DNA of 64,000 nt from Spirochaetia bacterium (GCA_963668315.1 OY764216.1:1152001-1216000), one strand, 5' to 3'. Shown: positions 26,400 through 57,427, counted from the stretch's first letter. Made by a program: numbers and translations. Notes: generated from the letters alone by a model not told the origin.

Positions 26400-26437
26400 T
26401 TGCCTCATTGGTCACAATGTTCTATTATCATACAATA
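26400..26437 (+). promoter_or_regulatory. Sigma70-like promoter of the GntR gene with overlapping ATCAkACA motif
   Basis: TTGCCT-17-TATTAT; CTATTATCATACAAT (26422-26436) is identical to the reverse complement of 41694-41708. Confidence 0.55.
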
Positions 26438-26447
26438 GGAGAGGCGT

Positions 26448-27155
26448 ATGGCAAAGATTCGTCAGAAAACGGTTGTAGAGCAGGTGATGGAGCAGATCAA
26501 AGAGCTGATCGCTTCGGGAAAATACCAACCGGGGGATAAACTGCCCACCGAGCATGAGCTGGCTGAGAAATTCGGCATCGGCCGTTCGTCTATCCGTGAA
26601 GCCATCAAGATCTTCAACTACCTGGGTGTTCTGGAATCCAAGGCCGCCAAGGGAACCTTCCTTTCCGACCGGGGCAATATTTCGGCCGAAGCCCTGTCGT
26701 GGTCCATTCTGCTGGGAAAGGATGAACTGCAGGAGCTGATTGAAACCCGGGGCGCCATAGAGCTCTGGAGCATCATCACCCTGACCGGGCTTTATCAGAA
26801 TGATCCGGAGAAATGCACTCCTGTCATAGAGGAGCTGAAAGAGCAGATCCGCAAAATGAAAAAAGGACTGGAAGAGGGAAAGCTTGAGGAGATGGTGGAA
26901 GCCGATTATGCCTTTCATAATATCGTTGTCAAAAGCACGGAAAACTCCCTTTTCTACTCTATCTACAAAACCCTCAAATCCTTCATGTATGAAGAGATCG
27001 TCCAGTCTCAGAATGATTACGCCGATCCGGGACTGATTGTTTCGGAGCATCAGGATATCATCGATACCATTATGTCCGGCGATATCAACCGCTCCGTGAA
27101 GACTTTCAATTCCCATATCGTCAATATTGAAAATCGACTGAAAATCCACGATTAG
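26448..27155 (+). CDS. FadR/GntR-family transcriptional regulator
   Basis: PGDKLPTEHELAEKFGIGRSSIREA wHTH; FCD domain with D..FH and EH. Confidence 0.92.
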   Translation: MAKIRQKTVVEQVMEQIKELIASGKYQPGDKLPTEHELAEKFGIGRSSIREAIKIFNYLGVLESKAAKGTFLSDRGNISAEALSWSILLGKDELQELIETRGAIELWSIITLTGLYQNDPEKCTPVIEELKEQIRKMKKGLEEGKLEEMVEADYAFHNIVVKSTENSLFYSIYKTLKSFMYEEIVQSQNDYADPGLIVSEHQDIIDTIMSGDINRSVKTFNSHIVNIENRLKIHD

Positions 27156-27671: not shown

Positions 27672-28565
27672 CTAGATTCCCGTGTGCTTGCTTATGTAGG
27701 CCCGGGCATTCTTGGCATAAACGAAGGGATTGGCTTTAGCCGGATCCTGCTCCGCTTCCACAACCATCCAGCCTTCGTATCCATTCTCTTCCAGTATGGC
27801 AAAGAGGGAGGGAAAATCGATGCTTCCGTCGCCGGGAACCGTGAAGACACCCTGCCTTACCGCATCCAGGAAGGATGAATCCTTTGCTTTCACATCGGTG
27901 AAGACATTGGTTCTCATATCCTTGAGGTGGACATGGCCCACGCGGGAGATAAACTTCTTCAGCGCGGCGACGGGATCTTCCCCGGAGAAGGCGAAGTGAC
28001 CCGAATCAAAGAGGAGGGTTACTTTGGAAGGATCGGTCTCGTTCAGGAACCTTTCCGTCTCTTCGATAGTCTGAACGCCCGTACCCATGTGATGGTGGAA
28101 TGCCAGGGTCAAGCCTTCCTCTTTGGCTATATGGCCCAGCTTGTTCATGCCGTCGGTCAGTCTCTTGAACTCCTCGTCAGTAAAAACGGCCTTGCCGGAG
28201 AATACGGAAGTTTTCGTATCTCCCTGGCAGCTTCTGGTCTGTTCCGAAGGTCCGATCACGTCGGCGCCCATGGCCTTCAGGAAAGCCAGCTGCGCCCTGA
28301 AGTCCTTTTCCACCTGCTCAAAGGGCTGGGAACAGAGGAAGGAACTGAACCACTGATTGCAGATTTTAATGCCCCGCACGTCCAGGTACTCTTTGAGAAC
28401 CGCCGGATCCTTGGGGTATTTGTTGCCTACTTCCGAACCGGTATAACCGGCCAGAGCCATTTCGCTGACGCACTGTTCGAAGGAATTTTCCTTTCCCAGG
28501 TCGGGCATATCGTCATTTGTCCAGCCGATAGGCGCCATGGCCAGTTTAACCTTGTTTTTATCCAT
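27672..28565 (-). CDS. iolE: myo-Inosose-2 dehydratase
   Basis: APIGWTNDDMP, HHHMGT, HVHLKD, FTVPGDG and VVEAEQDP. Confidence 0.95.
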   Translation of the reverse strand: MDKNKVKLAMAPIGWTNDDMPDLGKENSFEQCVSEMALAGYTGSEVGNKYPKDPAVLKEYLDVRGIKICNQWFSSFLCSQPFEQVEKDFRAQLAFLKAMGADVIGPSEQTRSCQGDTKTSVFSGKAVFTDEEFKRLTDGMNKLGHIAKEEGLTLAFHHHMGTGVQTIEETERFLNETDPSKVTLLFDSGHFAFSGEDPVAALKKFISRVGHVHLKDMRTNVFTDVKAKDSSFLDAVRQGVFTVPGDGSIDFPSLFAILEENGYEGWMVVEAEQDPAKANPFVYAKNARAYISKHTGI

Positions 28566-28623
28566 ATAAAACCTCTGTGAAAACCTCCGGCATTACGCCG
28601 GAGTAGTATGTTTATACTGAAAA

Positions 28624-30558
28624 TCAGTATTTTCTGGCTCTTTCAAGCTCTTCTTTCTGTGCTTCGGTCTTCTCTACGATGGAAGGATTCTTTGCCACTT
28701 CGGCCTGTCCGCAGCGCCAGAAACCTTTGTATCCGTCGGTCATGGTTTTGGGCAGGACCTTGATGTCGAACACCGTTGAAACGGTCTGCTTCTTCGCATC
28801 GGCAATGGCGTCGCGCAGTTCCTGCTCGTTCCGTATCGAATAGGTCTTACAGCCGTATCCCTCACCGATTTTGGCAAAATCGATGGCGATAAGCGAGCCG
28901 TCCAGTTTGCCGGTCTTCTCGTTTCTATGGCGGAATTCCGTTCCGAAACTGCCCTGGCCCCTATCCATCTGAAGGTTGTTGATACAGCCGAATTCGGCAT
29001 TGTCGAAGATCACCAGATTGATCTTCTTCCCTTCCTGGAGGGAGGTCGCCAGTTCGGAGTGGAGCATCATGAATGATCCGTCTCCCAGGTAGGCGTATAC
29101 TTCCCGGTCAGGTTCGGCCAGTTTGACTCCCAGGGCCGCGCCAATTTCATAACCCATGCAGGAGTAGCCGTACTCCATGTTGTAGGAGCGTTCGCTCTTG
29201 GCCCGGAATACCCTCTGAAGGTCGCCCGGCAGGGACCCGGCGGCTCCGACGACAATGGCGTCCTTATCAAGAACATCATCCAGTATGCCCAGGACTCCGG
29301 TCTGCGTCATTTTGGAGCCGAAGAACTTGCTGTACTCTTCCAGTGCGTCTGTCAGGCCGTCTTTGATCTCGGGAACGAATCCGGGGCCGGTATATTCTAC
29401 GGAGAAAAGTCGGTTCAGCTCTTTATCCCATTCGGCTTTGGCATCCTTTATCTCATTCTGATAGGAGGATTTGTAGCCTTCGGCGGAAAGAGCCTTTCCT
29501 ATGGCTTCCAGAGACATTTTCGCATCGGCCGTTACCCGGACGGCATCCATTTTGTACGAGTCGAAAGAGGCCACATTGATATTCACGTAATTCACATTGG
29601 GATTCTGGTAAAGCCATTTGGAGGCGGTGGTGAAGTCGGTATAGCGGGTTCCCACTCCGATAACCAGATCGGTCTCCTGTCCCAGAATGTTGGCGGCCAG
29701 ACAGCCGGTGGTGCCGATGCCTCCCAGGTTCAGGGGGTGGCTGTAGAGGGTGGCGCTTTTTCCCGCCTGTGTTTCGGCGTAGGGAATGTTGAAATCCTCG
29801 CAGAACTTGAGCATCGCCTTGCCCGCTTCGGAGTAGCGCACACCGCCGCCGCAGATAAGGAGGGGCTTTTTCTTGTTCTTGATCATGGCCACGGCTTCTT
29901 TTACCATGGCGTCGGTGGGAGCCGTTCTCTCCAGGCGGTGAACCCGCTTCTGGAAGAAATACTCCGGATAGTCGTATGCTTCGCCCTGAACATCCTGGGG
30001 CAGACAGACGGCTACGGCGCCCGTGTTGGCCGGATCGGTCAGGGTTCTCATGGCGCCGATCATGGCGGACATGAGCTGTTCGGGACGGTTGATCCTGTCC
30101 CAGAATTTACAGACGGGCCTGAAGGCGTCGTTGGTGGTAAGGGTCAGGTCGTGGAACTGCTCCATCTGCTGCAGAACCGGGTCGGGCTGTCTCGTGGCGT
30201 AGGTGTCGCCGGGCAGCAGGAGAACGGGAATTCTGTTCGCCGTGGCCGTGGCGGCGGCGGTGACCATGTTGGCGGCGCCGGGCCCTACCGAGGAGGTGCA
30301 GGCGTAGATCTGGCGGCGGTGATTCTGCTTGGCAAAACCCATGGCGGCGTGGGCCATGCCCTGCTCGTTGCGCCCCTGGTGGACGATCAGGTCGCCCGGG
30401 TCTTCTTCAAGGGCCTGTCCCAGACCGACCACATTGCCATGTCCGAAAACGGTAAAAATACCCTTTACGAATTTATGTTCTTCCCCGTCGAACTCCAGAT
30501 ACTGCTGATTGAGAAATTTGACCAGCGCCTGGGCTACGGTCATTCTTATCGTTCCCAT
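28624..30558 (-). CDS. iolD: 3D-(3,5/4)-trihydroxycyclohexane-1,2-dione acylhydrolase
   Basis: [32 protein letters not shown] and GDGS TPP motif. Confidence 0.96.
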
Positions 30559-31370
30559 TATTTATCCTCCGTTGTATGTTTCATTTCGGGCCAGATTTTG
30601 ACATCCTTTTCCAGAAGCCATTCGTGGTCCTGTACAAAATAGCGTGTTGTCGGCAGCCAGCGGTCTTCGGGCAGGTGGGGGATCATCCAGATGTAGTACA
30701 TGGCATAGCCCGCACCGGCTACCTGCGAGTGGGTCTTTCCCGGGGGAATCAGACAGGTATCTCCATTCTTTACAAAGTAGGGGTCCTCGTTCAGAAGGGA
30801 GACGCCGAATCCCTGCTCGGGAAAGTGGCGGTAGTGGTAGATTTCCGGCTGAGGGTGATGATGGGGAGGGTAGCTGGACCATTTCCCCGGGTGGTTTATC
30901 ACTTCGCCCAGAACCATATTGGAATCGGGGGCGAGCTCTCCGTCGAATACGGTACGTACCGTTCTGATGGATGTCTCATTTAAAACCCCGCCGCCGAAGA
31001 TATCGCACCGGACATCCTCTTTTGTGTAGAGTTTAGGAGAAAATTCCACGGGGTTTTTCTTCTTCTCCACGCAGAGCTCCGTGTCTTCAATCGCTTTGAT
31101 GGTAACGGGAATATCCTTGGGGACATGGAGCGTAACGGGATTTTCCTCAAAACAGGACCATCTTTCGGCTACGGCCGTGTTTCCCCCCCAGGAAAATTCC
31201 ACTTTTCCCTTTATAATAAGCCAGGCTCTTTCCTTGCTTTCATGGCAGTTCCAGGTCTCTCCCTTTTTCAGGTTGAGAATACCGAAGTCAAGAAGCATAT
31301 GGGAATGGATTCCTTCCTCTTCGGTTATGACAGTATATCCGCTTTTCTTTATCTGATTCTTAATGATCAT
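30558..31370 (-). CDS. iolB: 5-deoxy-glucuronate isomerase
   Basis: GEV...[15 protein letters not shown] cupin motif; position directly upstream of iolD. Confidence 0.88.
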
Positions 31371-31393
31371 GGATGCCTCCCTTATGAACGTTA

Positions 31394-31422
31394 ATTATAT
31401 TGTAGTATTGTCTGATAATCAA
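31394..31422 (-). promoter_or_regulatory. Promoter of iolBDE with ATCAGACA-type repeats in the spacer
   Basis: Minus strand reads TTGATT-atcagacaatactacaa(17)-TATAAT. Confidence 0.7.
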
Positions 31423-31449
31423 GTCTTATTTTTCCCAATCACTGGTCAA

Positions 31450-32472
31450 TCAGGTCGATTCCCGGGTTATCAGACGGGGAGGGATGCTTATCTTTGTCCT
31501 GGAAATGAGATTCCCCTTTTTTTTGTTATCAATCTGTTCCAGAAGACGATCACAGCAGAGACGGGCGAGTTCCTCCTTGGGCTGATGAACCGACGTCAGG
31601 CCGGGGTTGCTGTACCGGGCCAGTTCGCTATCATCATAACCGGCAATAGCCATATCACCGGGAATGGAAAATCCCTTGTCCTTCAGGGCTCTCATGGCGC
31701 CCAGGGCCATTAAGTCGTTGCAGCCGAAAAGGGCGTCGAACTGTCTCAGCTCATCCCCCATTCCGTTGATTGTCTCCTTGGCCGACTCAAAGGTGGAATC
31801 GCAGAATATTTTTTTTACGCTGCCACCCGCCTTTTTTACTATTTCGCAGAACCCCTGTTCACGCTGGCGGAATTCCAGGTGCTCCTGAATCATGGCCAAG
31901 AGTAGGAAATGCCTCCGTCCTCTCTCCAGAAAATGCCTGGCCACCTGCCGCCCTCCCTCGATGTGATCGGTGAATATGATCTCCTGATCCATGGTCGAAT
32001 CACAGGGAGGGTAGTGGAGAAAAACGGTCGGAATAGGATGGTCCCTCAGATAATCATGGCTTTCTTTGTCCAGTCCCTCCATGAGAATGATGAATCCGTC
32101 GACCTTGTTTCTGGATACCAGGCGGATGATGTTGTTGATTTTGCTGTGATTGCTGAGCTGGGTGAAGATAAGATCCATGTCCGCTTCTTCCAGCCGGCCC
32201 CTCAGGCTGTTGAGGAGCATGCCGTGATAAACATTGACGTTGACCAGATGGTAATTTTCAGGCAGGACGATAGCTACCGTTCCTACCTGACTGGTTATCA
32301 TGCTGCGGGCACCCGCGTTGAATTCAAAGCCCAGGTCACTGGCTATGCGGCTGATCTTCGTTCTTGTCTTCTCCGCCACCAGGGGGCTGTTGTTCAAGCT
32401 CCTGGAAACGGTGGCGAAGCTGACTCCGGCGATTTCCGCGATATCCTTAATTGTAACCTGGCTGCTCATCAT
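31450..32472 (-). CDS. LacI-family regulator
   Basis: TIKDIAEIAGVSFATVSRSLN HTH; GYDD and LTSVHQP. Confidence 0.93.
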   Translation of the reverse strand: MMSSQVTIKDIAEIAGVSFATVSRSLNNSPLVAEKTRTKISRIASDLGFEFNAGARSMITSQVGTVAIVLPENYHLVNVNVYHGMLLNSLRGRLEEADMDLIFTQLSNHSKINNIIRLVSRNKVDGFIILMEGLDKESHDYLRDHPIPTVFLHYPPCDSTMDQEIIFTDHIEGGRQVARHFLERGRRHFLLLAMIQEHLEFRQREQGFCEIVKKAGGSVKKIFCDSTFESAKETINGMGDELRQFDALFGCNDLMALGAMRALKDKGFSIPGDMAIAGYDDSELARYSNPGLTSVHQPKEELARLCCDRLLEQIDNKKKGNLISRTKISIPPRLITREST

Positions 32473-32482
32473 ATTTACCGGT

Positions 32483-33496
32483 CTAGAATGTCAGCTGCCT
32501 GCGGGATTCAAAGGATTCTTTGCACTTGTAGGCAATTTCCGAAACCCTGGTACCGTCATAGACGGAGACCCGGGGTTTCTTCCCGGTTAGAATACATGAC
32601 ACGAATTCCTGAATCTCGTTGACGTAGGACGTTTCGAAACGCTCCAGGAAATTCTCGCTGCACTCCCGCCGGACTCCGCCCGAATCCAGTATCTCCACCA
32701 GATTCTTCTGAGGCACCGACGCGATACGCAGGATCCCTTTGGTTCCGATGATTTCCGTCTCCACATTATAGCCGTGAGGCGCGGTTCTGCCGGCGAAAAG
32801 AAAGGCCATGGCATCATTGTCGAACTGCATGAGGCAGGAGACATTGTCGCCGTCGCCGTATTCCCCGAACTCCGGATGGGCGTAGCAGCCGCCCATGGCC
32901 GTTACCGACAGGGGTTCCGCCTTGAGAAACCAGCGGGCCAGATCTATATCATGGACCGCCATATCAAGAAACTGACCTCCCGAATGCCCCGCGAAAGCGA
33001 TGGCTCCGTCTATGAACTTTTCCGGGTCCTGGCTATAGGAGCGGAAGAGAATGGGTTTTCCTATCTCTCCCTTCTCCACTTTCTCGTGGGCATACATGTA
33101 GGACTCGTCGAAACGCCTCATGAACCCAAGCATAAAGACTTTATCCGGATGCGCTTCCACGGCTTTTTCCGCCTGCCGGCACTCTTCCACCGTCACGCCC
33201 AGGGGTTTTTCGGAGAAGACATGCTTCCCCGCAGCCAGGGCGGCGGCGATTTGCTTCGTGTGCAGTCCCGAGGGAGAGACAAGGCAGACGGCGTCAAGCT
33301 CATCAAGTTTCAGCATCTCTTCAAAGCTTGAGAAGCGGTGGGGAACACCCAGCCTGTCCGCCGTCTCGTTCAGAAGGCTTTCGTTAAGATCGCAGAGGGC
33401 AAAAAGCTCGGCGTTCATAATCTTTGTGGCGATGTTTTCGGCATGGGCCAGCCCAAGCCGTCCCAGACCGACAGAGCCGATTCTGATCTTATCCAT
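32483..33496 (-). CDS. iolG: Inositol 2-dehydrogenase-like Gfo/Idh/MocA oxidoreductase
   Basis: GLGRLG, EKP, GFMRRFD and DMAVHDID; iol context. Confidence 0.8.
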   Translation of the reverse strand: MDKIRIGSVGLGRLGLAHAENIATKIMNAELFALCDLNESLLNETADRLGVPHRFSSFEEMLKLDELDAVCLVSPSGLHTKQIAAALAAGKHVFSEKPLGVTVEECRQAEKAVEAHPDKVFMLGFMRRFDESYMYAHEKVEKGEIGKPILFRSYSQDPEKFIDGAIAFAGHSGGQFLDMAVHDIDLARWFLKAEPLSVTAMGGCYAHPEFGEYGDGDNVSCLMQFDNDAMAFLFAGRTAPHGYNVETEIIGTKGILRIASVPQKNLVEILDSGGVRRECSENFLERFETSYVNEIQEFVSCILTGKKPRVSVYDGTRVSEIAYKCKESFESRRQLTF

Positions 33497-33507
33497 TGCG
33501 GGCCGCC

Positions 33508-34527
33508 TTAGTCTTTCTTGGCGTTCTTGCGCATATCGATGATAACGGCCACCACAATGATCACACCTTCGGTAACCTGCTGCCAGTAGGCGTCTACCCC
33601 AAGGAGGGTTAAGCCGTTTCTCATGACCGAGAGGACCAGAGCTCCGACGAAAGCGCCCCAGATGGTTCCGATACCGCCGGAGTGGCTTGTTCCGCCGATG
33701 GTAGTAGCGGCGATGGCGGTAAGTTCATAACCCGTGGCGGCACCGGGGTGAACCGAACCGACGCGGCCGGCGAAGACAACGGCGGCCAGACCGGCTAGAA
33801 GACCGGAATAGGCATAAATGGCGATCAGGTTGCGGCTTACATTAACGCCGGATACCTCGGCTGCCTTGATATTGCCGCCGATGGCGTAGACGCTTTTCCC
33901 GAACCGCGTCATATCCAGGAGGACATAACTGACTCCAATCATCACAAAGTAGATGACGACGGGAATGGGGAGGAAGCCGAACAGTTTGCCGCCCAGGGCC
34001 GTCATGGAGGGGATGAGCGTACTGACCGGTTTCCCGTCGGAGTAGATCAGGGCAAGACCGCGGGCCACGGTCATCATACCCAGGGTGGATATGAACGCGG
34101 GGATGTGTGTCTTGGCTATCAGGGCGCCGGATACGGCTCCGCAGAGGGCTCCTACCGCCAGGGCGGCCAGAATCGGTACGATCACGGGCATCTCCGCCAG
34201 GTTGGGGAAATATTTGCCCGTTGCATCGGCCGTCTGGGCCAGAGAGGCCGCGATAACGCCGGAAAAGGCCAGGACCGAACCGACGGAGAGGTCGATTCCC
34301 TTGGAAATGATGACGAAAGTCAGTCCCAGGGCCATAATCCCGAAAATAGACGACTGGGTCAGTACATTGAAAATGTTGGAACGGCTCAGAAAGGCCGGCT
34401 CCATGATGCTTATGCCGATTATCATTATCAGCAGGACGAATACGATTCCGTATTTCTGAAGGATCATTTTCGCCTTCCGGTTCTTATCCGCAAGGGCTTC
34501 CTTGTTATTAATGGCAGCTGTAGACAT
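33508..34527 (-). CDS. Sugar (inositol) ABC transporter permease
   Basis: GIDLSVGS, YAIGGN and YEL.AIAA..IGGTS..GG.G (RbsC/MglC type). Confidence 0.92.
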   Translation of the reverse strand: MSTAAINNKEALADKNRKAKMILQKYGIVFVLLIMIIGISIMEPAFLSRSNIFNVLTQSSIFGIMALGLTFVIISKGIDLSVGSVLAFSGVIAASLAQTADATGKYFPNLAEMPVIVPILAALAVGALCGAVSGALIAKTHIPAFISTLGMMTVARGLALIYSDGKPVSTLIPSMTALGGKLFGFLPIPVVIYFVMIGVSYVLLDMTRFGKSVYAIGGNIKAAEVSGVNVSRNLIAIYAYSGLLAGLAAVVFAGRVGSVHPGAATGYELTAIAATTIGGTSHSGGIGTIWGAFVGALVLSVMRNGLTLLGVDAYWQQVTEGVIIVVAVIIDMRKNAKKD

Positions 34528-34530
34528 CTC

Positions 34531-36048
34531 TTAGTTCTCCTTTTCTACGGATTTACCAGTGGCGTAGGACATTAATTCTTCCTGGGTGAGATCGGGTCTG
34601 TTCTCTACGATACCCGTTACCCGGCCTTCGTGCATAATCATGATTCTGTCGCTCATTCCCATGACTTCCGGCAGTTCCGAGGAGATCATCACAATGGATT
34701 TTCCCTCTCCGGCGAGTCTGGTGATAAGCCGGTGGATTTCCGATTTGGCTCCCACATCGATTCCTCTGGTCGGCTCGTCAAGAAACAGAATATCCGGATT
34801 GGTCAGAAGCCACCGGGCGACCAGTACTTTCTGCTGGTTTCCGCCGGAAAGATTCTGGACTTTCTGCATCAGACTGGGGGTCTTCACCTGAATCTTGGTC
34901 ACGTAATCGTCGCAGTCCTTTTTGAGTATTTTGCTCTTGATCAGTCCCACCTTGTTCAGGTATTTGGGGATATTGGTAATAGCCATATTGAGCCTTACGG
35001 AAAGCATGGGGAAAATGCCCGACTGGCGCCTGTCTTCCGTCAGAAGGGCCATGTGCCTGGATATGGCGTCCCGGGGGCTCTTTATCTGCACTTCCTTACC
35101 GTCGATCAGGATCTCTCCGGAAACCTTGGGGCGGATACCGAAAATCGTTTCGATGACCTCCGTTCTCCCCGATCCGATAAGTCCTGCCACGCCGAGGATT
35201 TCTCCCTTTCTCACAGAGAAGGATACGTCCCTGAACAGGCGCTGATGGGTCAGATTCCGGACCTCCAGCTTGACTTCCCCGATCTCGCAGGGGACCTTGG
35301 GAAACATCTCATTTACATCCCTGCCCACCATCATGTTGATCAATTTGTCAACGCTCAGCTTATCCGTATCTTCCGAACCGATATAAGTTCCATCCCGGTA
35401 TACGGTGATCCGATCGGTGATCTCATAAACCTCATCGAGCTTATGGGAGATGTATATGATGCTTTTTCCCTGTTCCTTGAGCTTCCGCATGATGTTGAAA
35501 AGCTGTTTTACTTCTTTATCGGTCAATGCCGATGTAGGCTCGTCCATGATGATAAGTTTGGAATCATAGGACACGGCCTTGGCGATTTCTATCATCTGCA
35601 TCTTAGCCACAGTCAGGTCGGCCATTTCCGTTCTGGGGTCTTCGTTAAGATCGATTTCCTTGAGCACTTCGACGCTCATATCATACATTTTTTTATGATC
35701 GACAAATCCGAATTTGTTTACCGGTTCTCTTCCCAGCCATATGTTTTCCATGATGGGGCGATGAAGAACGGGGCTTAACTCCTGGTGTATCATGGAGATA
35801 CCCATGTTCAGGGCCTGGGAAGTATCATAACCCTCTCTAATTTCTCCATCATAGATTATCGTTCCCGATGTCTGACTGTGGACGCCGGCAAGACAGTTCA
35901 TCAGGGTTGACTTCCCTGCACCGTTCTCTCCCATTAGGGCGTGTATTTCTCCCGGGCGGACTTTAAGCTCAACCCCTTTGAGAGCCTTGACGCCTGGAAA
36001 ATTCTTTACGATGTCCTGCATCTGCAGGATATAGTTTTCCTCTGCCAT
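34531..36048 (-). CDS. Sugar ABC transporter ATP-binding protein
   Basis: GENGAGKST, LSGGNQQK and DEPTRGIDVGAK (RbsA/MglA type). Confidence 0.94.
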   Translation of the reverse strand: MAEENYILQMQDIVKNFPGVKALKGVELKVRPGEIHALMGENGAGKSTLMNCLAGVHSQTSGTIIYDGEIREGYDTSQALNMGISMIHQELSPVLHRPIMENIWLGREPVNKFGFVDHKKMYDMSVEVLKEIDLNEDPRTEMADLTVAKMQMIEIAKAVSYDSKLIIMDEPTSALTDKEVKQLFNIMRKLKEQGKSIIYISHKLDEVYEITDRITVYRDGTYIGSEDTDKLSVDKLINMMVGRDVNEMFPKVPCEIGEVKLEVRNLTHQRLFRDVSFSVRKGEILGVAGLIGSGRTEVIETIFGIRPKVSGEILIDGKEVQIKSPRDAISRHMALLTEDRRQSGIFPMLSVRLNMAITNIPKYLNKVGLIKSKILKKDCDDYVTKIQVKTPSLMQKVQNLSGGNQQKVLVARWLLTNPDILFLDEPTRGIDVGAKSEIHRLITRLAGEGKSIVMISSELPEVMGMSDRIMIMHEGRVTGIVENRPDLTQEELMSYATGKSVEKEN

Positions 36049-36151
36049 ATTTACTCCGATTGGAGGGAAGGAGAGATTTCCCCTTCCCTGTACGAACTCC
36101 GCCCAGGATATTCCCGCCCTTTTCAGGCAGGGCAGGGCGGATGGTTATTGA

Positions 36152-37099
36152 TTACATGAAGTCTGCGAGATTTTCAGGTGTGATAAGAACGAAGGGAACC
36201 CATACGAGGGGAACAACTTCCTGACCCTGAAGAACCTTGTGGATAAGTTCGGCTGAACCTTTTCCCTGTCCCACAGCATCCTGCAGAACGGTGGCGGCAA
36301 GGGAACCGTTACCTACGGCTTCCTTGGCATCGGGAATGGCATCGACACCCATGACGGGAACGTCTTCACGACCGGCGGCTTTCAGGGCTTCTACGGCACC
36401 AAGGGCCATTTCGTCATTGTTGGCGCAGATACCTTTCAGATCATCGCCGTAAGCGGTAATCCAGTTTTCAGTGATGGTCATACCCTGGTCTCTCTGCCAG
36501 TTAGCTGTCTCTTTGGCGAGGATTTTAATTCCGGGGAACTTGGCTTTGGCGGTAACTTCGTTTCCTTCGGTTCTCTTCAGAGCGCCTTCGTTATCGAGTT
36601 TTCCCATGAGGATTCCCACTCCGCCTTTTCCGCCGAGCAGTTCGCCCATGTACTCCATCTGCTGCGTACCGGCAATAATTTCCTGGGAACCGACATAGTA
36701 GACATTTTTGGGAAGATCTTTTTCGGCATAGGGATTTCTATTGACGAAACAGAGGGGAACGCCGGCTTCATCGGCCGCTCTGACAATGGGGCCCATGGCG
36801 CTGGTGTCAACGGGGACGACGATGAGAGCGTCCACTCTCTGAGCCAGAAGGGTATTTACCAGATCCTGCTGGCGGATAACGTCTTCCAGAGCATCCTGCA
36901 GTACGATTTCCACATTGTCCACGGTAGAGAAATACTCTTCCGCCGCATCCATTACGTAAGTCTGAAATGTATCGTTGAAATTATTACATACATAACCGAC
37001 TTTAAAGCTGTCCTTTGCTCCGTCACCATCTCCTGATCCGTTGGCGAAGAGTGCCGCTGCTGCTAGCAGTGAGAATAGAACGAGCCATACCTTTTTCAT
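36152..37099 (-). CDS. Sugar (inositol) ABC transporter substrate-binding protein
   Basis: Signal peptide; VNR, ANNDEMALGA and ATVLQD (RbsB-like). Confidence 0.9.
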   Translation of the reverse strand: MKKVWLVLFSLLAAAALFANGSGDGDGAKDSFKVGYVCNNFNDTFQTYVMDAAEEYFSTVDNVEIVLQDALEDVIRQQDLVNTLLAQRVDALIVVPVDTSAMGPIVRAADEAGVPLCFVNRNPYAEKDLPKNVYYVGSQEIIAGTQQMEYMGELLGGKGGVGILMGKLDNEGALKRTEGNEVTAKAKFPGIKILAKETANWQRDQGMTITENWITAYGDDLKGICANNDEMALGAVEALKAAGREDVPVMGVDAIPDAKEAVGNGSLAATVLQDAVGQGKGSAELIHKVLQGQEVVPLVWVPFVLITPENLADFM

Positions 37100-37133
37100 A
37101 AATTAACCTCCAATGATTCGTTTGCTCCTTGAA

Positions 37134-37155
37134 TTATTGCAAACGTTTTCAATAA
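37134..37155. promoter_or_regulatory. LacI-type operator upstream of the ABC-iolG operon
   Basis: TTATTGCAAACGTTTTCAATAA, 22-bp palindrome with one mismatched pair and central CG; weaker copy at 37339-37354; minus-strand TTGACA(37184-37189)-18-GATAAT just upstream. Confidence 0.72.
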
Positions 37156-37376
37156 AATTATTATCATCCCAGTTTTGTGATACTGTCAATGAGAAAGTTT
37201 ATAAAAAAGAAGCATAGTGGAATATAATGTTATATAGTAATGAAATGCGTAATTCTCAGTCTATCAGACAATAAGACAGAAAACGGCCTATTGTGTAAAA
37301 AAGACAATTGTTTAATATAGATAAAAAAAGATCGATTATTACAAACGTTTACATGCAATAATACTGTTTTAATTAT

Positions 37377-37423
37377 AAAAAAGAAACCGCACCGGAAAGT
37401 TGGATAAGGTCCGGTGCGGTTTC
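37377..37423 (-). terminator. Rho-independent terminator of the transaldolase-ALDH-carboxyltransferase operon
   Basis: 14-bp stem GAAACCGCACCGGA/TCCGGTGCGGTTTC followed by a T-run on the minus strand. Confidence 0.8.
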
Positions 37424-37598
37424 GGTGCGATTGAATTGTATCTGAATACCTTGAGCTACTTCTTCCTGCTGATCCAGAGAGAAGCATCGGCATAAATACC
37501 GGGAGTTTTGTCTACGGATGCATCGCGTGACTCGATTTCTCTTTTAAGGCGACTGCTTTTTCTGACCAGTCTTCGTTCTCTGCTTTTTCTCAAATTCA

Positions 37599-39194
37599 TC
37601 ATAATGGTATGTTCCCGTGTTTTTTGGCAGGTCTCTCCTCCTGCTTTTCCGCGATCATTTCCAGGGATCTGATCAATTCCTTCCGTGCCGCCTCCGGGGC
37701 GATCACATCATCCACGATGCCAAGGGAGGCTGAAGAGAAGGGATTCATGAATTTTCTCTGGTATTCATGCATCTTGATCTCTTTAATCAGGTTTGAGTCC
37801 TTGGCCGACTGTATTTCATTCCTGAATATGATATTCGCCGCTCCCGAAGCGCCCATTACGGCAATCTCCGCAATCGGCAGGGTCAGCACTCTGTCATAGC
37901 CCAGCGCCCTTGAAGCCATCCCAATATAGGCGCCTCCATAGGCTTTCCTCAGGACCAGGGCGATTTTGGGAACCGTGGCTTCCGCTATGGCGTAGAGGAG
38001 TTTGGCCCCGTGGCGAATAATGCCCCCGTGCTCCTGTTCCGTGCCCGGCATATATCCGGGTACATCCACAAGGGATATGACCGGAATGGAAAAGGCGTCG
38101 CAAAAGCGGATAAACCGGGCCGCCTTGTCGGAAGAGTCCTTATCCAGCGCTCCGGCGTATACCTTCGGCTGATTTCCAATGATGCCCACCGATCGACCCG
38201 CGAGCCGGGCAAATCCGACCACCATGCTGCGGGCGAAATCCCTGTGGACTTCCAGAAAGCTTTCCCTGTCAAAAAGGAGTGAAATGATCTCCCTTATGTC
38301 ATAGGATTTCGTGGACTCCCCGGGTATGATATTCAGAATATCTCCCGTTTCCCTGTTGGGATCGTCGGTGCATTCCACCCGGGGCGGCGCTTCCCTGTTG
38401 GAAGAGGGAAGATAGGAGAGCAGCCTGGTTACCGTGGCGAAGCACTCCTCCTCGCTGGCGCAGTGGAAATGAACGTTGCCGCTCAGGCTGCTGTGAGCCA
38501 TGGCTCCGCCCAGGTCCTCGTGGCTGACTTCTTCTCCCGTTACGGCCTTGATAACGTCCGGACCGGTAATGTACATATGGCTCGTTTTATCCACCATGAA
38601 GACAAAATCGGTCAGAGCAGGCGAATAAGCCGCTCCCCCGGCGCAGGGCCCCATAATCAGGCTGATCTGGGGAATGACACCGGAGGCAAGAATATTCCCC
38701 CGGAATATGTTCCCGTAACCTTCCAGGGACATGACTCCTTCCTGGATACGGGCCCCTCCCGAATCGTTTATCTGAATGAAGGGCCTGCCCGTTTTCAGCG
38801 CCATTTTCTGGGTGGACGCGATCTTGGAGGCATGCTGTTCGCCCAGGGACCCGCCCAGAACGGTAAAGTCCTGGGAGGAGAGCCAGATCTGGCGTCCGCC
38901 GAGTAGGGCACTGCCCGTGATTACCCCGTCTCCGGAAATCTTTTTGCTGTCCATTCCGAAGTCGTCGATACGGCTCATCTCGTAGGGATGATTTTCCACG
39001 AAACTGCCTTCGTCGGTGAGGAGCTGAATCCTCTCCCGGGCTGTGTGCTTTCCCTTTGAACGCTGTCTGGCCTGACGGTCCTCGCCGCCCCCGGCCAGCA
39101 TGGAAGAGCGCATCTTATCCAGAAGCTTAAGGCTCTCCCTGTGGCTATAGGGCAGTTCGGGCGTACTATCAGTTGCCTTTTCTAACTTGCTCAT
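37599..39194 (-). CDS. Acyl-CoA carboxyltransferase (PccB/MmdA-like)
   Basis: TARERI, QDFTVLGGS, DSGGARIQEG, GPCAGGAAYSP, DVPGYMPG, KAYGGAY and KKHGNIPL; start overlaps the ALDH 3' end. Confidence 0.92.
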   Translation of the reverse strand: MSKLEKATDSTPELPYSHRESLKLLDKMRSSMLAGGGEDRQARQRSKGKHTARERIQLLTDEGSFVENHPYEMSRIDDFGMDSKKISGDGVITGSALLGGRQIWLSSQDFTVLGGSLGEQHASKIASTQKMALKTGRPFIQINDSGGARIQEGVMSLEGYGNIFRGNILASGVIPQISLIMGPCAGGAAYSPALTDFVFMVDKTSHMYITGPDVIKAVTGEEVSHEDLGGAMAHSSLSGNVHFHCASEEECFATVTRLLSYLPSSNREAPPRVECTDDPNRETGDILNIIPGESTKSYDIREIISLLFDRESFLEVHRDFARSMVVGFARLAGRSVGIIGNQPKVYAGALDKDSSDKAARFIRFCDAFSIPVISLVDVPGYMPGTEQEHGGIIRHGAKLLYAIAEATVPKIALVLRKAYGGAYIGMASRALGYDRVLTLPIAEIAVMGASGAANIIFRNEIQSAKDSNLIKEIKMHEYQRKFMNPFSSASLGIVDDVIAPEAARKELIRSLEMIAEKQEERPAKKHGNIPL

Positions 39195-40551
39195 CGAATA
39201 ATTCCTCATCTGAGGGCTGCCGGCTGGCAATCGGGGAGGAGACCCAGGTCGTATTGAGCAGATGTTTCCAAGTAATATTTTCGCTGGCTATGTTACCGCC
39301 CCAGGTTCCGCAACCCAGAGTCAGAGTGGTGGGCATTCCGTTTGTCCAGGCACCGCTGTTAGCAAGGCACTGGGGCTGGTTGACCATGACCCGGGATACC
39401 TTGACCTGTTCTGCGACGGCCAGAATCCTTTCTTGCTTGCTGGTGTGGATACCGCAGGAGTGACCGGCTCCGGAATAAGCCGTAATATCGTTCACCAACT
39501 GAATGGCATCCTCGAATTTATTCCACTTGTAAAGCGTTGTCACCACGGAAAGCTTTTCTCCGGAGAAGGGATAGTCGGCGCCGGTTCCCGTCTCTTCCAC
39601 TGCCAGGAAACAGCAGCCTTCGGGGATCTCGATCCCGGCGATTCCGGCAATTTTGGCGGCAGGCTGGGCTACCACGTTTCTATTGAGAGTATGGCCGTCG
39701 GGCCACAGAGCCTTCTGGAGTTTTGCTTTCTCTTCGCTGCTGCAGACATAGCCGCCTTCCGCCGTGATAGCTTTGATGAAGTCGTCATAGATCACATCCT
39801 GGACAACGCAGGCGTTCTCAGCGGAACAGCTCGTCGCCTGGTCAAAGGTCTTGGATCTTCTGATTTTATCGGCTACCACAGCCATGTCCTGGGTGTCGTC
39901 CACGATGGTGACGGCATTTCCCGCTCCTACGCCGTAGGCAGGGGTACCGCTGGAGTAGGCCGCCTTAACGAGACCGCCGCCTCCCGTCGCCAGGATCAGA
40001 TCGCACTGCTCCATGACCGCCTGGGAGTTTTCCATGGAAACTTCGTCCACGCTGATAACGAGATCGGCGGGGAAACCGGCTTTTTCAATCACCCCGCGGA
40101 TCTTATCCACGACGAGCTTGTTGGTCTTTTTGGTGCGGGGATGGGGGCACATGATAATCGCGTTTCTGGTTTTCAGGGCATTCATGGCCTTGAGAACGGG
40201 AGTCGCTTCGCAGTTGGTACAGGGAATAAGGGCTCCGATGACGCCGATGGGCTTGGCTATTTTGATAAGGCCGAGGGCTTCGTTTTCTTCGATAATACCC
40301 ACGGATTTCTGTCCTTTCATATCAAACCAGCCGCCTCTGACTTTATTCATCATTTTGGCGTATTTGCTGGGAACATCACCCATGTTGGATTCCTCTACGG
40401 CAAACTCGGCCAGGCTCTGGGCAAAATCTTCCTGAATGGCGGCCCAGGCAATCCTCTGGCAGAGATCGTCCACCTGTTCCTGGGTGGCAAACTCAATTTT
40501 CTTCTGAGCCTCTTTGGCTCTTTTCATTAATCCGCTAACATAATCTGACAT
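39169..40551 (-). CDS. CoA-acylating aldehyde dehydrogenase (SauS/SucD/AdhE-N type)
   Basis: P.TN..AT, ATGG.GLVKAAYSSG.PAYGVGAGN, catalytic SCSAEN, FSGEKLS, GHSCGIH and LTLGCGTWGGN. Confidence 0.9.
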   Translation of the reverse strand: MSDYVSGLMKRAKEAQKKIEFATQEQVDDLCQRIAWAAIQEDFAQSLAEFAVEESNMGDVPSKYAKMMNKVRGGWFDMKGQKSVGIIEENEALGLIKIAKPIGVIGALIPCTNCEATPVLKAMNALKTRNAIIMCPHPRTKKTNKLVVDKIRGVIEKAGFPADLVISVDEVSMENSQAVMEQCDLILATGGGGLVKAAYSSGTPAYGVGAGNAVTIVDDTQDMAVVADKIRRSKTFDQATSCSAENACVVQDVIYDDFIKAITAEGGYVCSSEEKAKLQKALWPDGHTLNRNVVAQPAAKIAGIAGIEIPEGCCFLAVEETGTGADYPFSGEKLSVVTTLYKWNKFEDAIQLVNDITAYSGAGHSCGIHTSKQERILAVAEQVKVSRVMVNQPQCLANSGAWTNGMPTTLTLGCGTWGGNIASENITWKHLLNTTWVSSPIASRQPSDEELFDEQVRKGN

Positions 40552-40571
40552 AGCTTCAATCTCCTCTTATC

Positions 40572-41648
40572 TTATTTGTCAGGATTGGGGATCATCAGAT
40601 CCCGTACGATGCCCACGAGCTCATGGTATCCGGCGATAAATCCCCGCAGGGTCCGGGCTGTGGCTCCGTATTGTTCGAACTCTTCGGGCTTCATGCCGTC
40701 CGGTTCATAGGCTCTTGTGAAGTCGGGGAACTTTTTATGGAGTTCCTCCAGGATGGCGGGATCGACGGGGTCGTCGATGGTGACTTTTACATCCACATCG
40801 CTTCCGTTGTATCTTTTCTGCCACTTGTAGGGAATGGTCTGTACGATATCGTCGCCGACGAGCTGGGACCAGTGAAGGTGATTTCTGTAGGCGGCTACGA
40901 GAAGACGGGTGCGGTATCCCTTTTCTTTATAAAGTCTGTAGGCGTTCTTGAAGGCGGCGACTCCGGCCCAATCCAGAGTGCCGGGATTGGTTATGATGTT
41001 TTCCTTCTCGGCGATAACCCTGAGCCAGTCGTCGAGGCGTCCCACCATGATCGTACATACGGGAATCATGTTGGACGTATCCTTGCCCTCCGCTTCCCTT
41101 CTTTTCAGACCGTTTTCAACGGCTTCGGCCACGGCCATAGCCTGGGGAACGGTAAAACAAACGGTAGCATTGATATTCACGCCCCGGTAGGTTGCCTCTT
41201 CGAAGGCTTTGATACCGGCGGCGGTGGTGGGCATTTTCACCATCATGTTGGGAGCCAGGGTGCTGAACTGTTCCGCCTGGTCGGCCATGGCGGCGGCGTT
41301 GCGGTAAAGCTGGGCGTTCGTCTGAATGGAAATCCGGCCCTTGAGGCCTTTTTCTTTATCGAAAACGGGTTTGAGAACTCCCGCTCCCTTTACAGCCATC
41401 TCTTCGATAAGCTTCCAGGCAATCTCTTCTTCTCCCGCTTCGGGCATCTCCTTGATGATTTCCTTGATGCGTCCTTCCCACTGGGGCATTTCCTTTTTAA
41501 GAACATTAAGAACGATAACGGGATTTGTCGTGGCGCCCGTGGCTCCATGGCTAATAGCGTATTCCAGCTCTTCCACAGAACAGGAATCATTCCACACTTC
41601 CATATCGCATATGGAAACAGATTTTTTTATTGGACTCATATCACCCAT
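40572..41648 (-). CDS. Transaldolase-family protein with atypical active site
   Basis: WNDS, GATTNP, Schiff-base VKMP.T..G, NATVCFT and VGRLDDW. Confidence 0.88.
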   Translation of the reverse strand: MGDMSPIKKSVSICDMEVWNDSCSVEELEYAISHGATGATTNPVIVLNVLKKEMPQWEGRIKEIIKEMPEAGEEEIAWKLIEEMAVKGAGVLKPVFDKEKGLKGRISIQTNAQLYRNAAAMADQAEQFSTLAPNMMVKMPTTAAGIKAFEEATYRGVNINATVCFTVPQAMAVAEAVENGLKRREAEGKDTSNMIPVCTIMVGRLDDWLRVIAEKENIITNPGTLDWAGVAAFKNAYRLYKEKGYRTRLLVAAYRNHLHWSQLVGDDIVQTIPYKWQKRYNGSDVDVKVTIDDPVDPAILEELHKKFPDFTRAYEPDGMKPEEFEQYGATARTLRGFIAGYHELVGIVRDLMIPNPDK

Positions 41649-41677: not shown

Positions 41678-41762
41678 TTGGACCGATTGTCTAATTGTAT
41701 GATAATAGGAAAAAATGATTTTGTAAAGAGAAAAAAACATTTATTATCATAATATCAGACAA
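41678..41762 (-). promoter_or_regulatory. Promoter/operator of the transaldolase operon
   Basis: Minus strand TTTACA-17-TATCAT overlapping tandem ATCATACA-ATTAGACA-ATCGGTCC; extra TATCAGACAA at 41753-41762. Confidence 0.6.
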
Positions 41763-41809: not shown

Positions 41810-42190
41810 TTATTTTTTTCTGGCTATGACTTCAATTTCCACGAGAACATCTTTGGGGAGCCGGGCCACTTCCACGGCGGCTCTGGCGGGGTAGGGGGCT
41901 TCAAAAAAAGCACCGTAAACCTCATTCATCGCGGCGAAGGTATTCATATCCTTGAGAAATACCGTCGCTTTGAGAACGTCGGCCATGGTGCATCCCGCTT
42001 CTTCGAGAACGGCTCTGACATTTTTCAGGGAGCGTTCCGTCTGAACGGCTATATCTTCGCCGGCCAGGGCTCCCGTTTCGGGATCAAAGGGAATCTGTCC
42101 TGAGACAAAAACCAGGTCTCCCGATACGGTTCCCTGGGAATAGGGTCCGATGGCTCCGGGGGCGTTCTTTGTGGTAATAGCTTCTTTCAT
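41810..42190 (-). CDS. ridA: RidA-family enamine/imine deaminase
   Basis: AP.AIGPYSQ, SGQIP and PAR..VEV..LPK...VEIE; GGAGG RBS. Confidence 0.92.
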   Translation of the reverse strand: MKEAITTKNAPGAIGPYSQGTVSGDLVFVSGQIPFDPETGALAGEDIAVQTERSLKNVRAVLEEAGCTMADVLKATVFLKDMNTFAAMNEVYGAFFEAPYPARAAVEVARLPKDVLVEIEVIARKK

Positions 42191-42360
42191 TCTGTTATCC
42201 TCCATTGATATCTTGTTGTGAACATTTTACTGCCCTTTTGGCGGCAGCGGGTATTAAATACATAATACTAACATATTTCCCTGTTTTTTAACCATATCAT
42301 AATGGTCCTGTATTAGGGTGGGCACAAGAGCGTCATAGACTGACGGCTCCGGGAGGTCCT

Positions 42361-53258: not shown

Positions 53259-54290
53259 TTAAGAACCGCAGCTCTCTCTTATCACTAAAGTCGGCTGGAG
53301 TTTTACATCCTTCGTTATGCCGCTTTTCCCGGAATTTATCCTATCCAGCAAATGCCGGCAGGCCAGCTGGGTCATCTGCTCGAGCGGCTGATGTACGGTC
53401 GTGAGACGAGGTTTGAAATAGGTGCTGAGTTCTATATCGTCAAATCCGACCAGGGCGATATCCTGGGGGATGCGGATGGATAATTCCATGAAAGCCTCCC
53501 TGGCACCCAGGGCAACCATGTCGTTCTGGGCGAACAGGGCCGTGGCTTTTCGGAAAATTTCTCTGTGGTTCATCACCCCGTCATAACCGGACTGAAAATA
53601 ACACCCCCCTTCCCGGATTATCAGTGATTCATCAATCTCCCTATCGTAGAAATGGTGGGCCGTCCTGTAGCCTTCCGTCCTCAGTTTATACTCCTGCCCT
53701 TCGTATTCTTCCGTGGTTATGGTGGCTATTTTTCTGTGGCCCCTTTTCAAAAGATGCTCCGTTGCCAGATAGCCACCGCGAAGATGGTCGGTATAGACTT
53801 TGTCCACCCCTTCGAAGTCGGGATCGTCGGGATAATGATGGAGAAAGACATAGGGGATTCGGGAGGATTTCAAAAACAGCTTCGTATCGGAGGAGAGGGT
53901 CGTACAGGCGATAAGCAATCCATCAACTTTCTTCCCGATAATGAGTTTTTTGATATTACTGGCATCGGAAAAGCGGTTGTTGGCAAACGCGACAATCAGG
54001 TCCATATTCTCCTTTTCAAGGCTTTTCTGCAGCTGGCCGTGAAAGGTACTGAAATAGAGGTTGGAGCTGTAATCCATAAAGTCATTGGGATAGATTATGC
54101 CGATGGTGTTGGAGCGGTTGGTGATCAGGCTCCTGGCGCTGGCGTTGAATTCAAAACCCTGTTCTCCGGCGATTTTTAAAATCCTGTCCTTGGTGGATTG
54201 AGAGATCAGGGGACTGTCATTCAGGCTACGGGAAACGGTAGACTGGCTTACCCCGGCCAGCAGGGCCAGGTCTTTTGTCGTTATGGACAA
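53259..54290 (-). CDS. LacI-family regulator
   Basis: TTKDLA..AGVSQSTVSRSLN HTH; GFDD and LTTVHQP; TTG start. Confidence 0.92.
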   Translation of the reverse strand: MSITTKDLALLAGVSQSTVSRSLNDSPLISQSTKDRILKIAGEQGFEFNASARSLITNRSNTIGIIYPNDFMDYSSNLYFSTFHGQLQKSLEKENMDLIVAFANNRFSDASNIKKLIIGKKVDGLLIACTTLSSDTKLFLKSSRIPYVFLHHYPDDPDFEGVDKVYTDHLRGGYLATEHLLKRGHRKIATITTEEYEGQEYKLRTEGYRTAHHFYDREIDESLIIREGGCYFQSGYDGVMNHREIFRKATALFAQNDMVALGAREAFMELSIRIPQDIALVGFDDIELSTYFKPRLTTVHQPLEQMTQLACRHLLDRINSGKSGITKDVKLQPTLVIRESCGS

Positions 54291-54360
54291 TTTGAAGGAC
54301 TCCGGTTCTTTTTGTATTTACGATAGCATCTTTATTCATAATAATCCATCATATAAAGAA

Positions 54361-54523: not shown

Positions 54524-54552
54524 AGAAAGTTTACGATTGTAAGGAGTCCGGG

Positions 54553-55380: not shown

Positions 55381-55404
55381 TCCCAAAAAAGAGGAGAAGG
55401 ACTA

Positions 55405-56418: not shown

Positions 56419-56430
56419 GAGTATCAGGTA

Positions 56431-57372: not shown

Positions 57373-57427
57373 TTGACGCCCTTCCCGGAATATTAACCGG
57401 AGAAGGATATATCTTGGGAGGTATAAT

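Follow-up and report, generated by a model that had tools for sequence, protein, structure and literature searches.

A myo-inositol locus of a spirochaete with a candidate kinase-free ending: transaldolase-like enzyme, CoA-acylating dehydrogenase and carboxyltransferase

Background

How does a bacterium that encodes the first steps of myo-inositol breakdown complete the pathway when the enzymes that usually do so are missing? The question is raised by a 64-kb stretch of the genome of a Spirochaetia bacterium (GCA_963668315.1 OY764216.1:1152001-1216000; hereafter "the window"), which contains iolG, iolE, iolD and iolB and, upstream of them, three genes for a transaldolase-like protein (TAL), a CoA-acylating aldehyde dehydrogenase (ALDH) and an acyl-CoA carboxyltransferase (CT). 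The compound at issue is 5-dehydro-2-deoxy-D-gluconate (DKG), the substrate of the kinase IolC. Genome screens for inositol use treat iolC as one of four essential core genes, according to the accessible part of the source (PMC9430895). Megamonas, an active inositol user, was reported to have iolG/E/D/B and no detected iolC or iolJ, no explanation being offered (PMC13617567).

An earlier note, made from the sequence of the window alone, proposed that the trio replaces IolC, IolJ and IolA. In our view the locus is rather likely to be a myo-inositol catabolic unit in which the trio completes the pathway without phosphorylation of DKG, through malonyl-CoA to acetyl-CoA. Inositol would be converted to DKG by IolG/E/D/B; TAL would turn DKG and glyceraldehyde 3-phosphate (GAP) into fructose 6-phosphate (F6P) and malonate semialdehyde; ALDH would convert malonate semialdehyde, CoA and NAD(P)+ into malonyl-CoA; and CT would convert malonyl-CoA into acetyl-CoA and CO2. 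The observations that bear on this are the gene content, the genome-wide absence of the canonical enzymes, the linkage of the trio to iol genes, a distribution that complements those of iolC and iolA, and a motif common to several promoters. Absence, linkage and anti-correlations support the interpretation of the earlier note overall, the activities themselves being predicted from sequence; the promoter motif and the beta-alanine/pyrimidine context of ALDH and CT add support that the note did not have.

Results and discussion

An inositol locus without the canonical lower pathway

The host genome, a single contig of 5.62 Mb and 97% complete, is that of a spirochaete, and the closest named TAL homolog (80%) carries the label Oceanispirochaeta. 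The genes follow one another on the minus strand in the order TAL, ALDH, CT, sugar ABC transporter, iolG, LacI gene, iolB, iolD and iolE:

40572..41648, minus strand: TAL, divergent transaldolase-family Schiff-base enzyme of 358 amino acids (PF00923, 150 bits); proposed DKG transaldolase/aldolase
39169..40551, minus strand: ALDH, CoA-acylating aldehyde dehydrogenase of SauS/SucD/AdhE type, 460 amino acids (NF047625, 523 against a cut-off of 600 bits); proposed to convert malonate semialdehyde to malonyl-CoA
37599..39194, minus strand: CT, acyl-CoA carboxyltransferase of 12S/MmdA/PccB type, 531 amino acids (PF01039, 599 bits; TIGR01117, 724 against 999); proposed malonyl-CoA decarboxylase alpha subunit
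37377..37423, minus strand: intrinsic terminator-like hairpin at the end of the trio (14-bp stem, 13-nt loop, U6 tail, -26 kcal/mol)
36152..37099, minus strand: sugar ABC substrate-binding protein (SBP; PF13407)
34531..36048, minus strand: sugar ABC ATPase, MglA/RbsA-like (PF00005)
33508..34527, minus strand: sugar ABC permease (PF02653)
32483..33496, minus strand: iolG, inositol 2-dehydrogenase (TIGR04380, 368 against 355)
31450..32472, minus strand: LacI-family regulator (PF00356, PF13377)
30558..31370, minus strand: iolB-type isomerase of a divergent subfamily (PF04962, 169 bits; TIGR04378, 93 against 205 bits)
28624..30558, minus strand: iolD, trihydroxycyclohexanedione (THcHDO) hydrolase (TIGR04377, 939 against 715)
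27672..28565, minus strand: iolE, 2-inosose dehydratase (TIGR04379, 412 against 290)

All the uptake and iol genes named in the earlier note are thus present. In profile searches iolE, iolD and iolG pass their NCBIfam cut-offs; iolB is recognised through the Pfam family KduI/IolB and fails TIGR04378. Since iolB of three canonical iolB-iolC-iolJ-iolD clusters also fails that model (73-89 bits), the low score is no bar to its identity. The description of the trio as a tight operon with its own terminator held up as well: TAL and ALDH are separated by 20 nt, the end of ALDH and the beginning of CT share 26 nt, and the hairpin with U-run 3' of CT has a z-score of -6.85, matched by 0 of 200 shuffles. 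CT likely starts at the ATG at 39194, which has a ribosome-binding site and agrees with the start in the nearest ortholog, rather than at the TTG at 39230.

The reported lack of iolC, iolJ and iolA in the 64 kb was borne out by Pfam scans of 52 open reading frames (ORFs) of the window, in which no PfkB kinase, class II aldolase or methylmalonate-semialdehyde dehydrogenase (MMSDH) was found, and it extends to the whole genome. In whole-genome profile searches the best iolC score was 116 against a cut-off of 300 bits (matches above the cut-off in other genomes reach 304-409 bits), with 11 weak PfkB-family matches; the best MMSDH score, for IolA/MmsA, was 167 against 448.5 bits; and no DUF2090 aldolase was found. 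The single class II fructose-bisphosphate aldolase (FBA) of the genome is unlinked, about 1.85 Mb from the locus. Because the canonical lower enzymes are absent genome-wide, the IolB product is left without a known route. Searches of the genome also gave no dihydroxyacetone (DHA) kinase and no Glu/Phe-type transaldolase; the only other PF00923 gene (G000:C1:43233-43895) is of the fructose-6-phosphate aldolase (FSA) type, with Gln/Tyr. Four phosphofructokinase (PFK) family genes are present, including two candidates for a pyrophosphate (PPi)-dependent PFK.

A divergent enzyme of the transaldolase fold

TAL scores under every NCBIfam transaldolase cut-off (best 117 against 367 bits). The top Foldseek matches of its AF2 model (pLDDT 97) are nevertheless transaldolases (TM 0.80-0.81, 19-22% identity), and the features of the TAL/FSA superfamily, namely the TIM-barrel fold, the Schiff-base Lys, and the Asp, Asn and Thr, are all present. 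Residues D21, N42, K138, N160, T162, R204 and R255 are invariant in 116/116 aligned sequences, and so are four atypical ones, Q109, T199, M201 and A253. In an alignment to the Francisella transaldolase, Gln109 takes the place of the conserved Glu, Met201 of Phe and Ala253 of Ser. We take the Glu and Phe to be the catalytic residues at TalB positions 96/178, and the Ser is presumably the phosphate-binding one. DKG is 5-deoxy-D-fructuronate, with the C3/C4 configuration needed by TAL/FSA enzymes, whose donors have a free C1 hydroxyl; its cleavage yields malonate semialdehyde. It was reported, in the accessible part of the source, that changing the Phe at the Met201-equivalent site to Tyr converts TalB into an aldolase and that the phosphate ligands of transaldolase are two Arg and one Ser, roles being given for F178 and R181 (PMC3962226). 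A substrate ending in a carboxylate would fit the TAL site, because both Arg are kept and the phosphate-site Ser is replaced by Ala.

Two familiar identities were considered and rejected. In a classical transaldolase (EC 2.2.1.2), Glu and Phe would be expected where all 116 sequences have Q109 and M201, and the family cut-off is failed; an FSA-type aldolase would share the Gln, but Met stands where FSA has Tyr. The 3-oxo-isoapionate decarboxylase OiaC, a presumed transaldolase-family enzyme, is a tentative lead; DKG is not a beta-keto acid.

DKG is probably the substrate of TAL, cleaved via a Schiff base at Lys138. Transfer of the three-carbon unit to GAP, giving F6P, seems somewhat likelier than its release as DHA, because the genome has no DHA kinase and TAL has no Tyr at the FSA position. 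Release of DHA followed by recapture through the FSA-type aldolase of the genome would have the same net result. The benefit that the earlier note saw in a kinase-free route stands in part: the IolC step would be avoided, but F6P still requires PFK, so ATP would be spared only through a PPi-dependent PFK, for which the two candidates are available.

Distribution and linkage of the transaldolase-like gene

A GTDB scan over 22 of 64 parts confirmed at least 575 TAL relatives, and the best 80 of these were taken as loci. They come from Spirochaetota, Chloroflexota, Acidobacteriota, Verrucomicrobiota, Planctomycetota, Myxococcota, Actinomycetota, Pseudomonadota, Bacillota and Fusobacteriota. The fetched flanks contain iolD or iolB in 45/80 loci; of the 43 loci whose flanks reach 5 kb or more in both directions, 32 have one of these genes. 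An iolC-like gene lies near TAL in 6/80 loci and a class II aldolase (FBA) in none, ALDH in 14/80 and CT in 9/80. TAL often occupies the slot of iolC, the order being iolB-TAL-iolD versus iolB-iolC-iolD. Among 20 TAL loci of relatives, the trio is adjacent in 10, and 8 of those 10 have iol genes in the fetched region.

The 45 genomes whose TAL adjoins iolD or iolB include 9 with iolC above the cut-off and 36 without. That set was chosen for TAL; hence a class-wide draw was made from Anaerolineae, consisting of 200 evenly spaced genomes plus G387 (201 in all), with only 10 candidates per genome scored for iolC. The 36 iolD-positive genomes comprise 23 with iolC only, 8 with TAL only, none with both and 5 with neither (Fisher p = 4e-5, or 1e-4 without the centre genome G387, the significance being inflated by kinship). 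The earlier note had named conserved linkage to iol genes and anti-correlation with iolC among its checks, and both were found.

The TAL family is not single-purpose. A Thermotoga-type IolN occurs in 6/80 TAL loci (L081, L085, L091, L104, L129 and L062), mostly with IolM-like and IolO-like genes, and three of them (L085, L091 and L104) also carry a tartronate-semialdehyde reductase. This suggests that a 5-keto-hexonate would be cleaved there to tartronate semialdehyde, and it would agree with a family that has several 5-keto-hexonates as substrates, all of which give a C3 semialdehyde.

Some loci do not follow either arrangement. L220 (9969-11225, G572) carries a TAL homolog with an internal TGA in the iol operon of an iolC-less genome, which is either a pseudogene or an assembly error. 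L213, L215 and L216 (G482, G519 and G577) have iolD-iolE(-iolG), preceded by a glycosyltransferase-like ORF, and no iolB, iolC or TAL nearby. In G291 (L131, 99% complete), iolG-iolD-iolB is present, and iolC and TAL are both missing.

The aldehyde dehydrogenase

The best PDB match of ALDH is 8CEI, an acetylating succinate-semialdehyde dehydrogenase, with Cys242, Glu332 and His364 aligned, and all 15 PDB matches at E <= 1e-20 are of the acylating EutE/AdhE/SucD type by name or known assignment. By this comparison ALDH is of the CoA-acylating type. An identity as SauS was rejected, the NF047625 cut-off being failed and no sulfonate genes being recognised among the window ORFs scanned.

Across the 45 genomes with TAL and iol genes, counted at E <= 1e-110, ALDH alternates with IolA: 13 have ALDH only, 27 MMSDH only, 2 both and 3 neither, which extends the anti-correlation to iolA. 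No MMSDH was found among the 11 close trio-bearing relatives. TAL is therefore not bound to the trio, an ordinary MMSDH being paired with it in those 27 genomes, and the one-to-one mapping of three genes onto three missing enzymes has to be given up. TAL would stand for IolC and IolJ, and ALDH with CT for IolA, as two modules that occur independently.

We also inspected 20 further ALDH loci, picked from 53 ALDH matches as those not already examined. A class-III aminotransferase adjoins ALDH in 8 of them, and in several of these there are also genes for PreTA, a dihydropyrimidinase, a hydrolase of the nitrilase family or a xanthine/uracil permease. CT is present in 6 of the 20 and TAL with iol genes in 2; 4 are a distinct paralog with a split transketolase, and 3 have an uninformative context. 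A 43-row tree groups the window ALDH, with support 96, with six ALDHs from pyrimidine/aminotransferase or CT contexts. In one locus (L150) ALDH abuts a canonical iolJ-C-E-D-B cluster. The iol cluster of Petroclostridium sp. X23 (L114), a cultured organism, includes both TAL and ALDH. Uracil degradation via beta-alanine gives malonate semialdehyde, as stated in the part of PMC7332683 that is accessible. This is the likely substrate of ALDH, because it is the sole metabolite common to the inositol, beta-alanine and pyrimidine contexts. The conversion of taurine to sulfoacetaldehyde would use similar genes, yet without need for a carboxyltransferase. Malonyl-CoA is the probable product.

Two other arrangements of ALDH relatives were seen. 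A separate clade of about 50% identity (L206 4973-10656, L207, L208 and L212) stands beside inositol genes with a CoA transferase, an HMG-CoA-lyase-like enzyme and a split transketolase; such a set might process DKG by a transketolase reaction, with malic semialdehyde and malyl-CoA as intermediates. In L193 (4094-11678, G020) a near-identical second ALDH-CT pair follows genes for a cysteine-rich Fe-S protein and two FAD oxidase subunits, which may form a dehydrogenase of 3-hydroxypropionate type supplying malonate semialdehyde.

The carboxyltransferase and a possible sodium pump

CT is the only full-length 12S/MmdA-type copy in the genome, where a complete acetyl-CoA carboxylase (ACC) is encoded separately and no methylmalonyl-CoA mutase was found. 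Its GPCAGG and RKAYGG motifs are intact, and it has Ile at the site of D422 in S. coelicolor PccB; the change of that Asp422 to Ile admits acetyl-CoA. Six genomes (G037, G039, G404, G405, G372 and G408) have, within about 14 kb of ALDH, a CT together with a beta subunit and a free biotin carrier, and complete Na+-pumping decarboxylase modules adjoin ALDH relatives in beta-alanine/pyrimidine operons. CT is likely to take the carboxyl group off malonyl-CoA.

OadG-A-B and AccB/AccC are present elsewhere in the host genome, and the sole beta subunit found follows a long OadA-type gene there and in 10/11 close relatives. Because no carrier is linked to it, CT must borrow one (the OadA biotinyl domain or AccB) or act without one. 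The OadGAB pump, although unlinked, might accept the carboxyl group on its biotinyl domain and so export Na+, which is possible, if on balance doubtful. The alternatives are transcarboxylation to pyruvate by the OadA route, or uncoupled decarboxylation. Although plausible, Na+ coupling of malonyl-CoA decarboxylation is the weakest step of the reading.

A shared promoter motif

A motif of the form ATT(A/G)TC(A/T)(G/T)ACAAT recurs at four promoters, which belong to TAL, the ABC unit, iolB and a GntR gene:

41695..41762, no strand assigned: trio promoter region with two motif copies (41695-41706 and ~41751-41762), overlapping a sigma-70-like site
37138..37352, no strand assigned: ABC-unit promoter region (TTGACA-18-GATAAT) with one shared motif at 37262-37272
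~37138-37150 and 37342-37352: two LacI-type sites in the ABC-unit promoter
31408..31419, minus strand: shared operator-like motif at the iolB promoter
26424-26436: shared motif at the GntR gene's own promoter, the gene lying just beyond iolE
26448-27155, plus strand: FadR-type GntR regulator gene (PF00392 and PF07729), beyond the range given in the earlier note

Of 7 strict matches in the genome, 3 lie in the window, where 0.10 would be expected; these chance figures flatter the motif and count the less in its favour, as it was derived from the very regions at issue and in part coincides with -10 hexamers. Its conservation across genomes is better evidence. Among 37 spirochaete loci it lies upstream of TAL in 19/35 (within 200 nt), of the GntR gene in 10/20, of iolB in 6/12 and of SBP in 4/13, and upstream of ALDH in 0/14 and of CT in 0/13. 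GntR homologs in relatives are found between CT and SBP or divergent from TAL. The motif would tie the trio to iolBDE as one regulon, and the FadR-type GntR protein is the probable regulator of the unit. The locus appears to bring both modules together, in a single operon with a single regulator, and its closed genome lacks all three canonical enzymes.

A medium pattern of the motif matches 14 sites in the genome, including G000:C1:753318, 2176730 and 2761763; some of the copies elsewhere may belong to the regulon or serve other FadR-type regulators. Two tighter patterns made for the LacI-type sites match nowhere else in the genome than in the ABC-unit promoter.

Neighbouring genes

A RidA-family gene (41810-42205) lies immediately upstream of the trio, with a terminator-like hairpin in between. 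Such a gene is near TAL in only 1/80 loci and is probably unrelated to the pathway. About 12 kb off, at 53259-58324, a LacI gene is divergent from three xylose-isomerase-like TIM barrels and an IolG-like dehydrogenase of the B. subtilis type (NF052679, 443 against 540). This may be a second, accessory unit of inositol type feeding other inositol isomers into the pathway.

Weighing the evidence

Several observations weigh against a kinase-free inositol route through the trio. Both known acid/base residues, the Glu of TAL and the Tyr of FSA, are missing from the transaldolase-like enzyme, which leaves its chemistry unexplained, and a housekeeping role is possible for it in a genome without a Glu/Phe-type transaldolase. 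iolC is kept by 5/11 close trio-bearing relatives, and a class II aldolase stands beside it in 4 examined close relatives, twice as a separate complete cluster; because both are present there, TAL might serve another substrate in iolC-bearing relatives. No iolD was found in 4/6 strong TAL carriers in a 301-genome Spirochaetota sample or in 3/11 TAL carriers in the Anaerolineae sample, and no iol gene at 5/43 well-flanked TAL loci; other TAL loci hold IolM/N/O-like genes, AOR or FGGY kinases. The comparison genomes are mostly incomplete metagenome-assembled genomes. Enzymes of broad range (Thermotoga 1VRG, Sulfolobus 1X0U) also have Ile where PccB has D422, and neither here nor in close relatives does CT have a linked biotin carrier, gamma or beta (pump) subunit.

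These points can be read in other ways. TAL might replace IolJ alone, an unrecognised PfkB or other kinase making phosphorylated DKG (DKGP) that is then cleaved by class I aldolase action. The 11 weak PfkB-family matches of the host and the 9/45 carrier genomes with iolC would suit this, as would four loci of Chloroflexota or unnamed lineages (L068, L082, L087 and L130) where iolC and TAL stand together with no FBA nearby. However, FBA-less iolC is ordinary, a linked FBA being missing also at 6/6 examined iolC-bearing Anaerolineae loci, and iolC itself is missing in 36/45 carriers and in 8/8 TAL carriers among the iolD-positive Anaerolineae. TAL also occupies the iolC slot, no kinase cluster recurs in 100 loci except FGGY in 3 non-iolD loci, and TAL/FSA donors have a free C1 hydroxyl. 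We consider a hidden kinase quite unlikely. About as unlikely is that the trio serves another sugar or a sulfonate (sulfofructose, sulfoacetaldehyde or the 5-keto-hexonate of another cyclitol) or that TAL is a housekeeping transaldolase, the iol neighbourhood reflecting catabolic clustering. SauS is the best family of ALDH, the trio is set off by a promoter and a terminator, homologs of TAL are found away from iol genes as well, and the genome has no canonical transaldolase. But then the iolBDE product would be without a route; the SauS cut-off is failed, the sulfofructose transaldolase is only weakly similar (E ~5e-8), CT has no role on a sulfonate, the promoter motif is common with iolB, and TAL lies inside iol operons across phyla.

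A narrower alternative, improbable though slightly less so than these two, keeps the cleavage of DKG as proposed and changes the ending: ALDH might itself decarboxylate to acetyl-CoA as a convergent IolA, or malonyl-CoA might mainly feed fatty-acid synthesis, with CT acting on another acyl-CoA or carboxylating. CT is near TAL less often than ALDH is (9/80 against 14/80 loci), and AccB/AccC could partner a carboxylase where no carrier is linked. Against this, the CT start overlaps the ALDH stop, ALDH and CT are also paired in unrelated contexts, where a beta subunit and a biotin carrier often accompany them, and the genome has no mutase for a methylmalonyl-CoA route and a complete separate ACC. 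A malonyl-CoA route to acetyl-CoA through the trio is the ending we prefer. Its most elaborate form is a tentative proposal and, taken whole, rather unlikely: a complete, co-regulated kinase-free route whose three activities would all be undescribed, with a DKG:GAP transaldolase, a malonyl-CoA-forming dehydrogenase and a stand-alone CT using the biotin domain and pump of oxaloacetate decarboxylase (OAD), a PPi-dependent PFK sparing ATP. It would, with the same reservation, imply that the TAL/FSA family has an acid/base chemistry of a third type, and the use for Na+ pumping of a decarboxylation that IolA dissipates.

Comparison with known systems

This is apparently an undescribed ending to a common pathway; no description of it was found in the literature searched, which left out most subscription journals. 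If the reading is true, an IolC-replacing enzyme would be named that occurs in at least nine phyla among the best 80 loci, transaldolase chemistry would extend to a carboxylated unphosphorylated ketose, and anaerobes would conserve energy from malonate semialdehyde, also in uracil and beta-alanine breakdown.

The canonical IolG-E-D-B-C-J-A pathway of Bacillus subtilis and Salmonella, as far as the accessible part of PMC9430895 describes it, is alike in uptake, IolG/E/D and an IolB-type isomerase, and in the C3+C3 split and the acetyl-CoA end that are predicted here. It differs in having a kinase, a class II/DUF2090 aldolase, a decarboxylating MMSDH and dihydroxyacetone phosphate, where F6P (or DHA) and free malonyl-CoA are predicted here. 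The anaerobic route of Anaerostipes rhamnosivorans also belongs to an anaerobe that replaces IolA; according to the accessible part of PMC8355322 it keeps IolC and IolJ, and 3-oxopropionate is reduced to propionate via a CoA transferase, whereas the route proposed for the trio would oxidise the aldehyde carbon, giving malonyl-CoA.

TalB/Tal and FSA (PF00923) share with TAL the fold (TM ~0.8), the Schiff-base Lys, the Asp, Asn and Thr and two anion-binding Arg; TAL differs in having Gln for the transaldolase Glu, Met for the transaldolase Phe or FSA Tyr, and Ala for the phosphate-binding Ser. SauS and SucD (8CEI) have in common with ALDH the family, the catalytic Cys/Glu/His and a substrate, predicted for ALDH, of semialdehyde type with an anionic tail, but ALDH scores under the SauS cut-off and is set apart by its inositol, beta-alanine and pyrimidine contexts and its carboxyltransferase partner. 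The sulfo-TAL pathway of Bacillus (PMC7491151, in its accessible part; structures 8BC2-4) has, as here, an isomerase, a transaldolase acting on an unphosphorylated C6 ketose with an anionic end, and an aldehyde dehydrogenase. Its sulfofructose transaldolase is of a short 220-residue type, in contrast to the 358 residues, the Gln/Met at the acid/base positions and the predicted carboxylate substrate here. The Na+-pumping methylmalonyl-CoA decarboxylase (MmdA-D) and transcarboxylase 12S have an alpha/12S-type CT subunit, which CT resembles; CT, however, scores under the MmdA cut-off, has no linked gamma, carrier or beta subunit and no mutase, and has malonyl-CoA as its predicted substrate. By analogy, then, and while falling outside both families in these comparisons, the first step would resemble the sulfo-TAL pathway and the last a Na+-pumping acyl-CoA decarboxylase.

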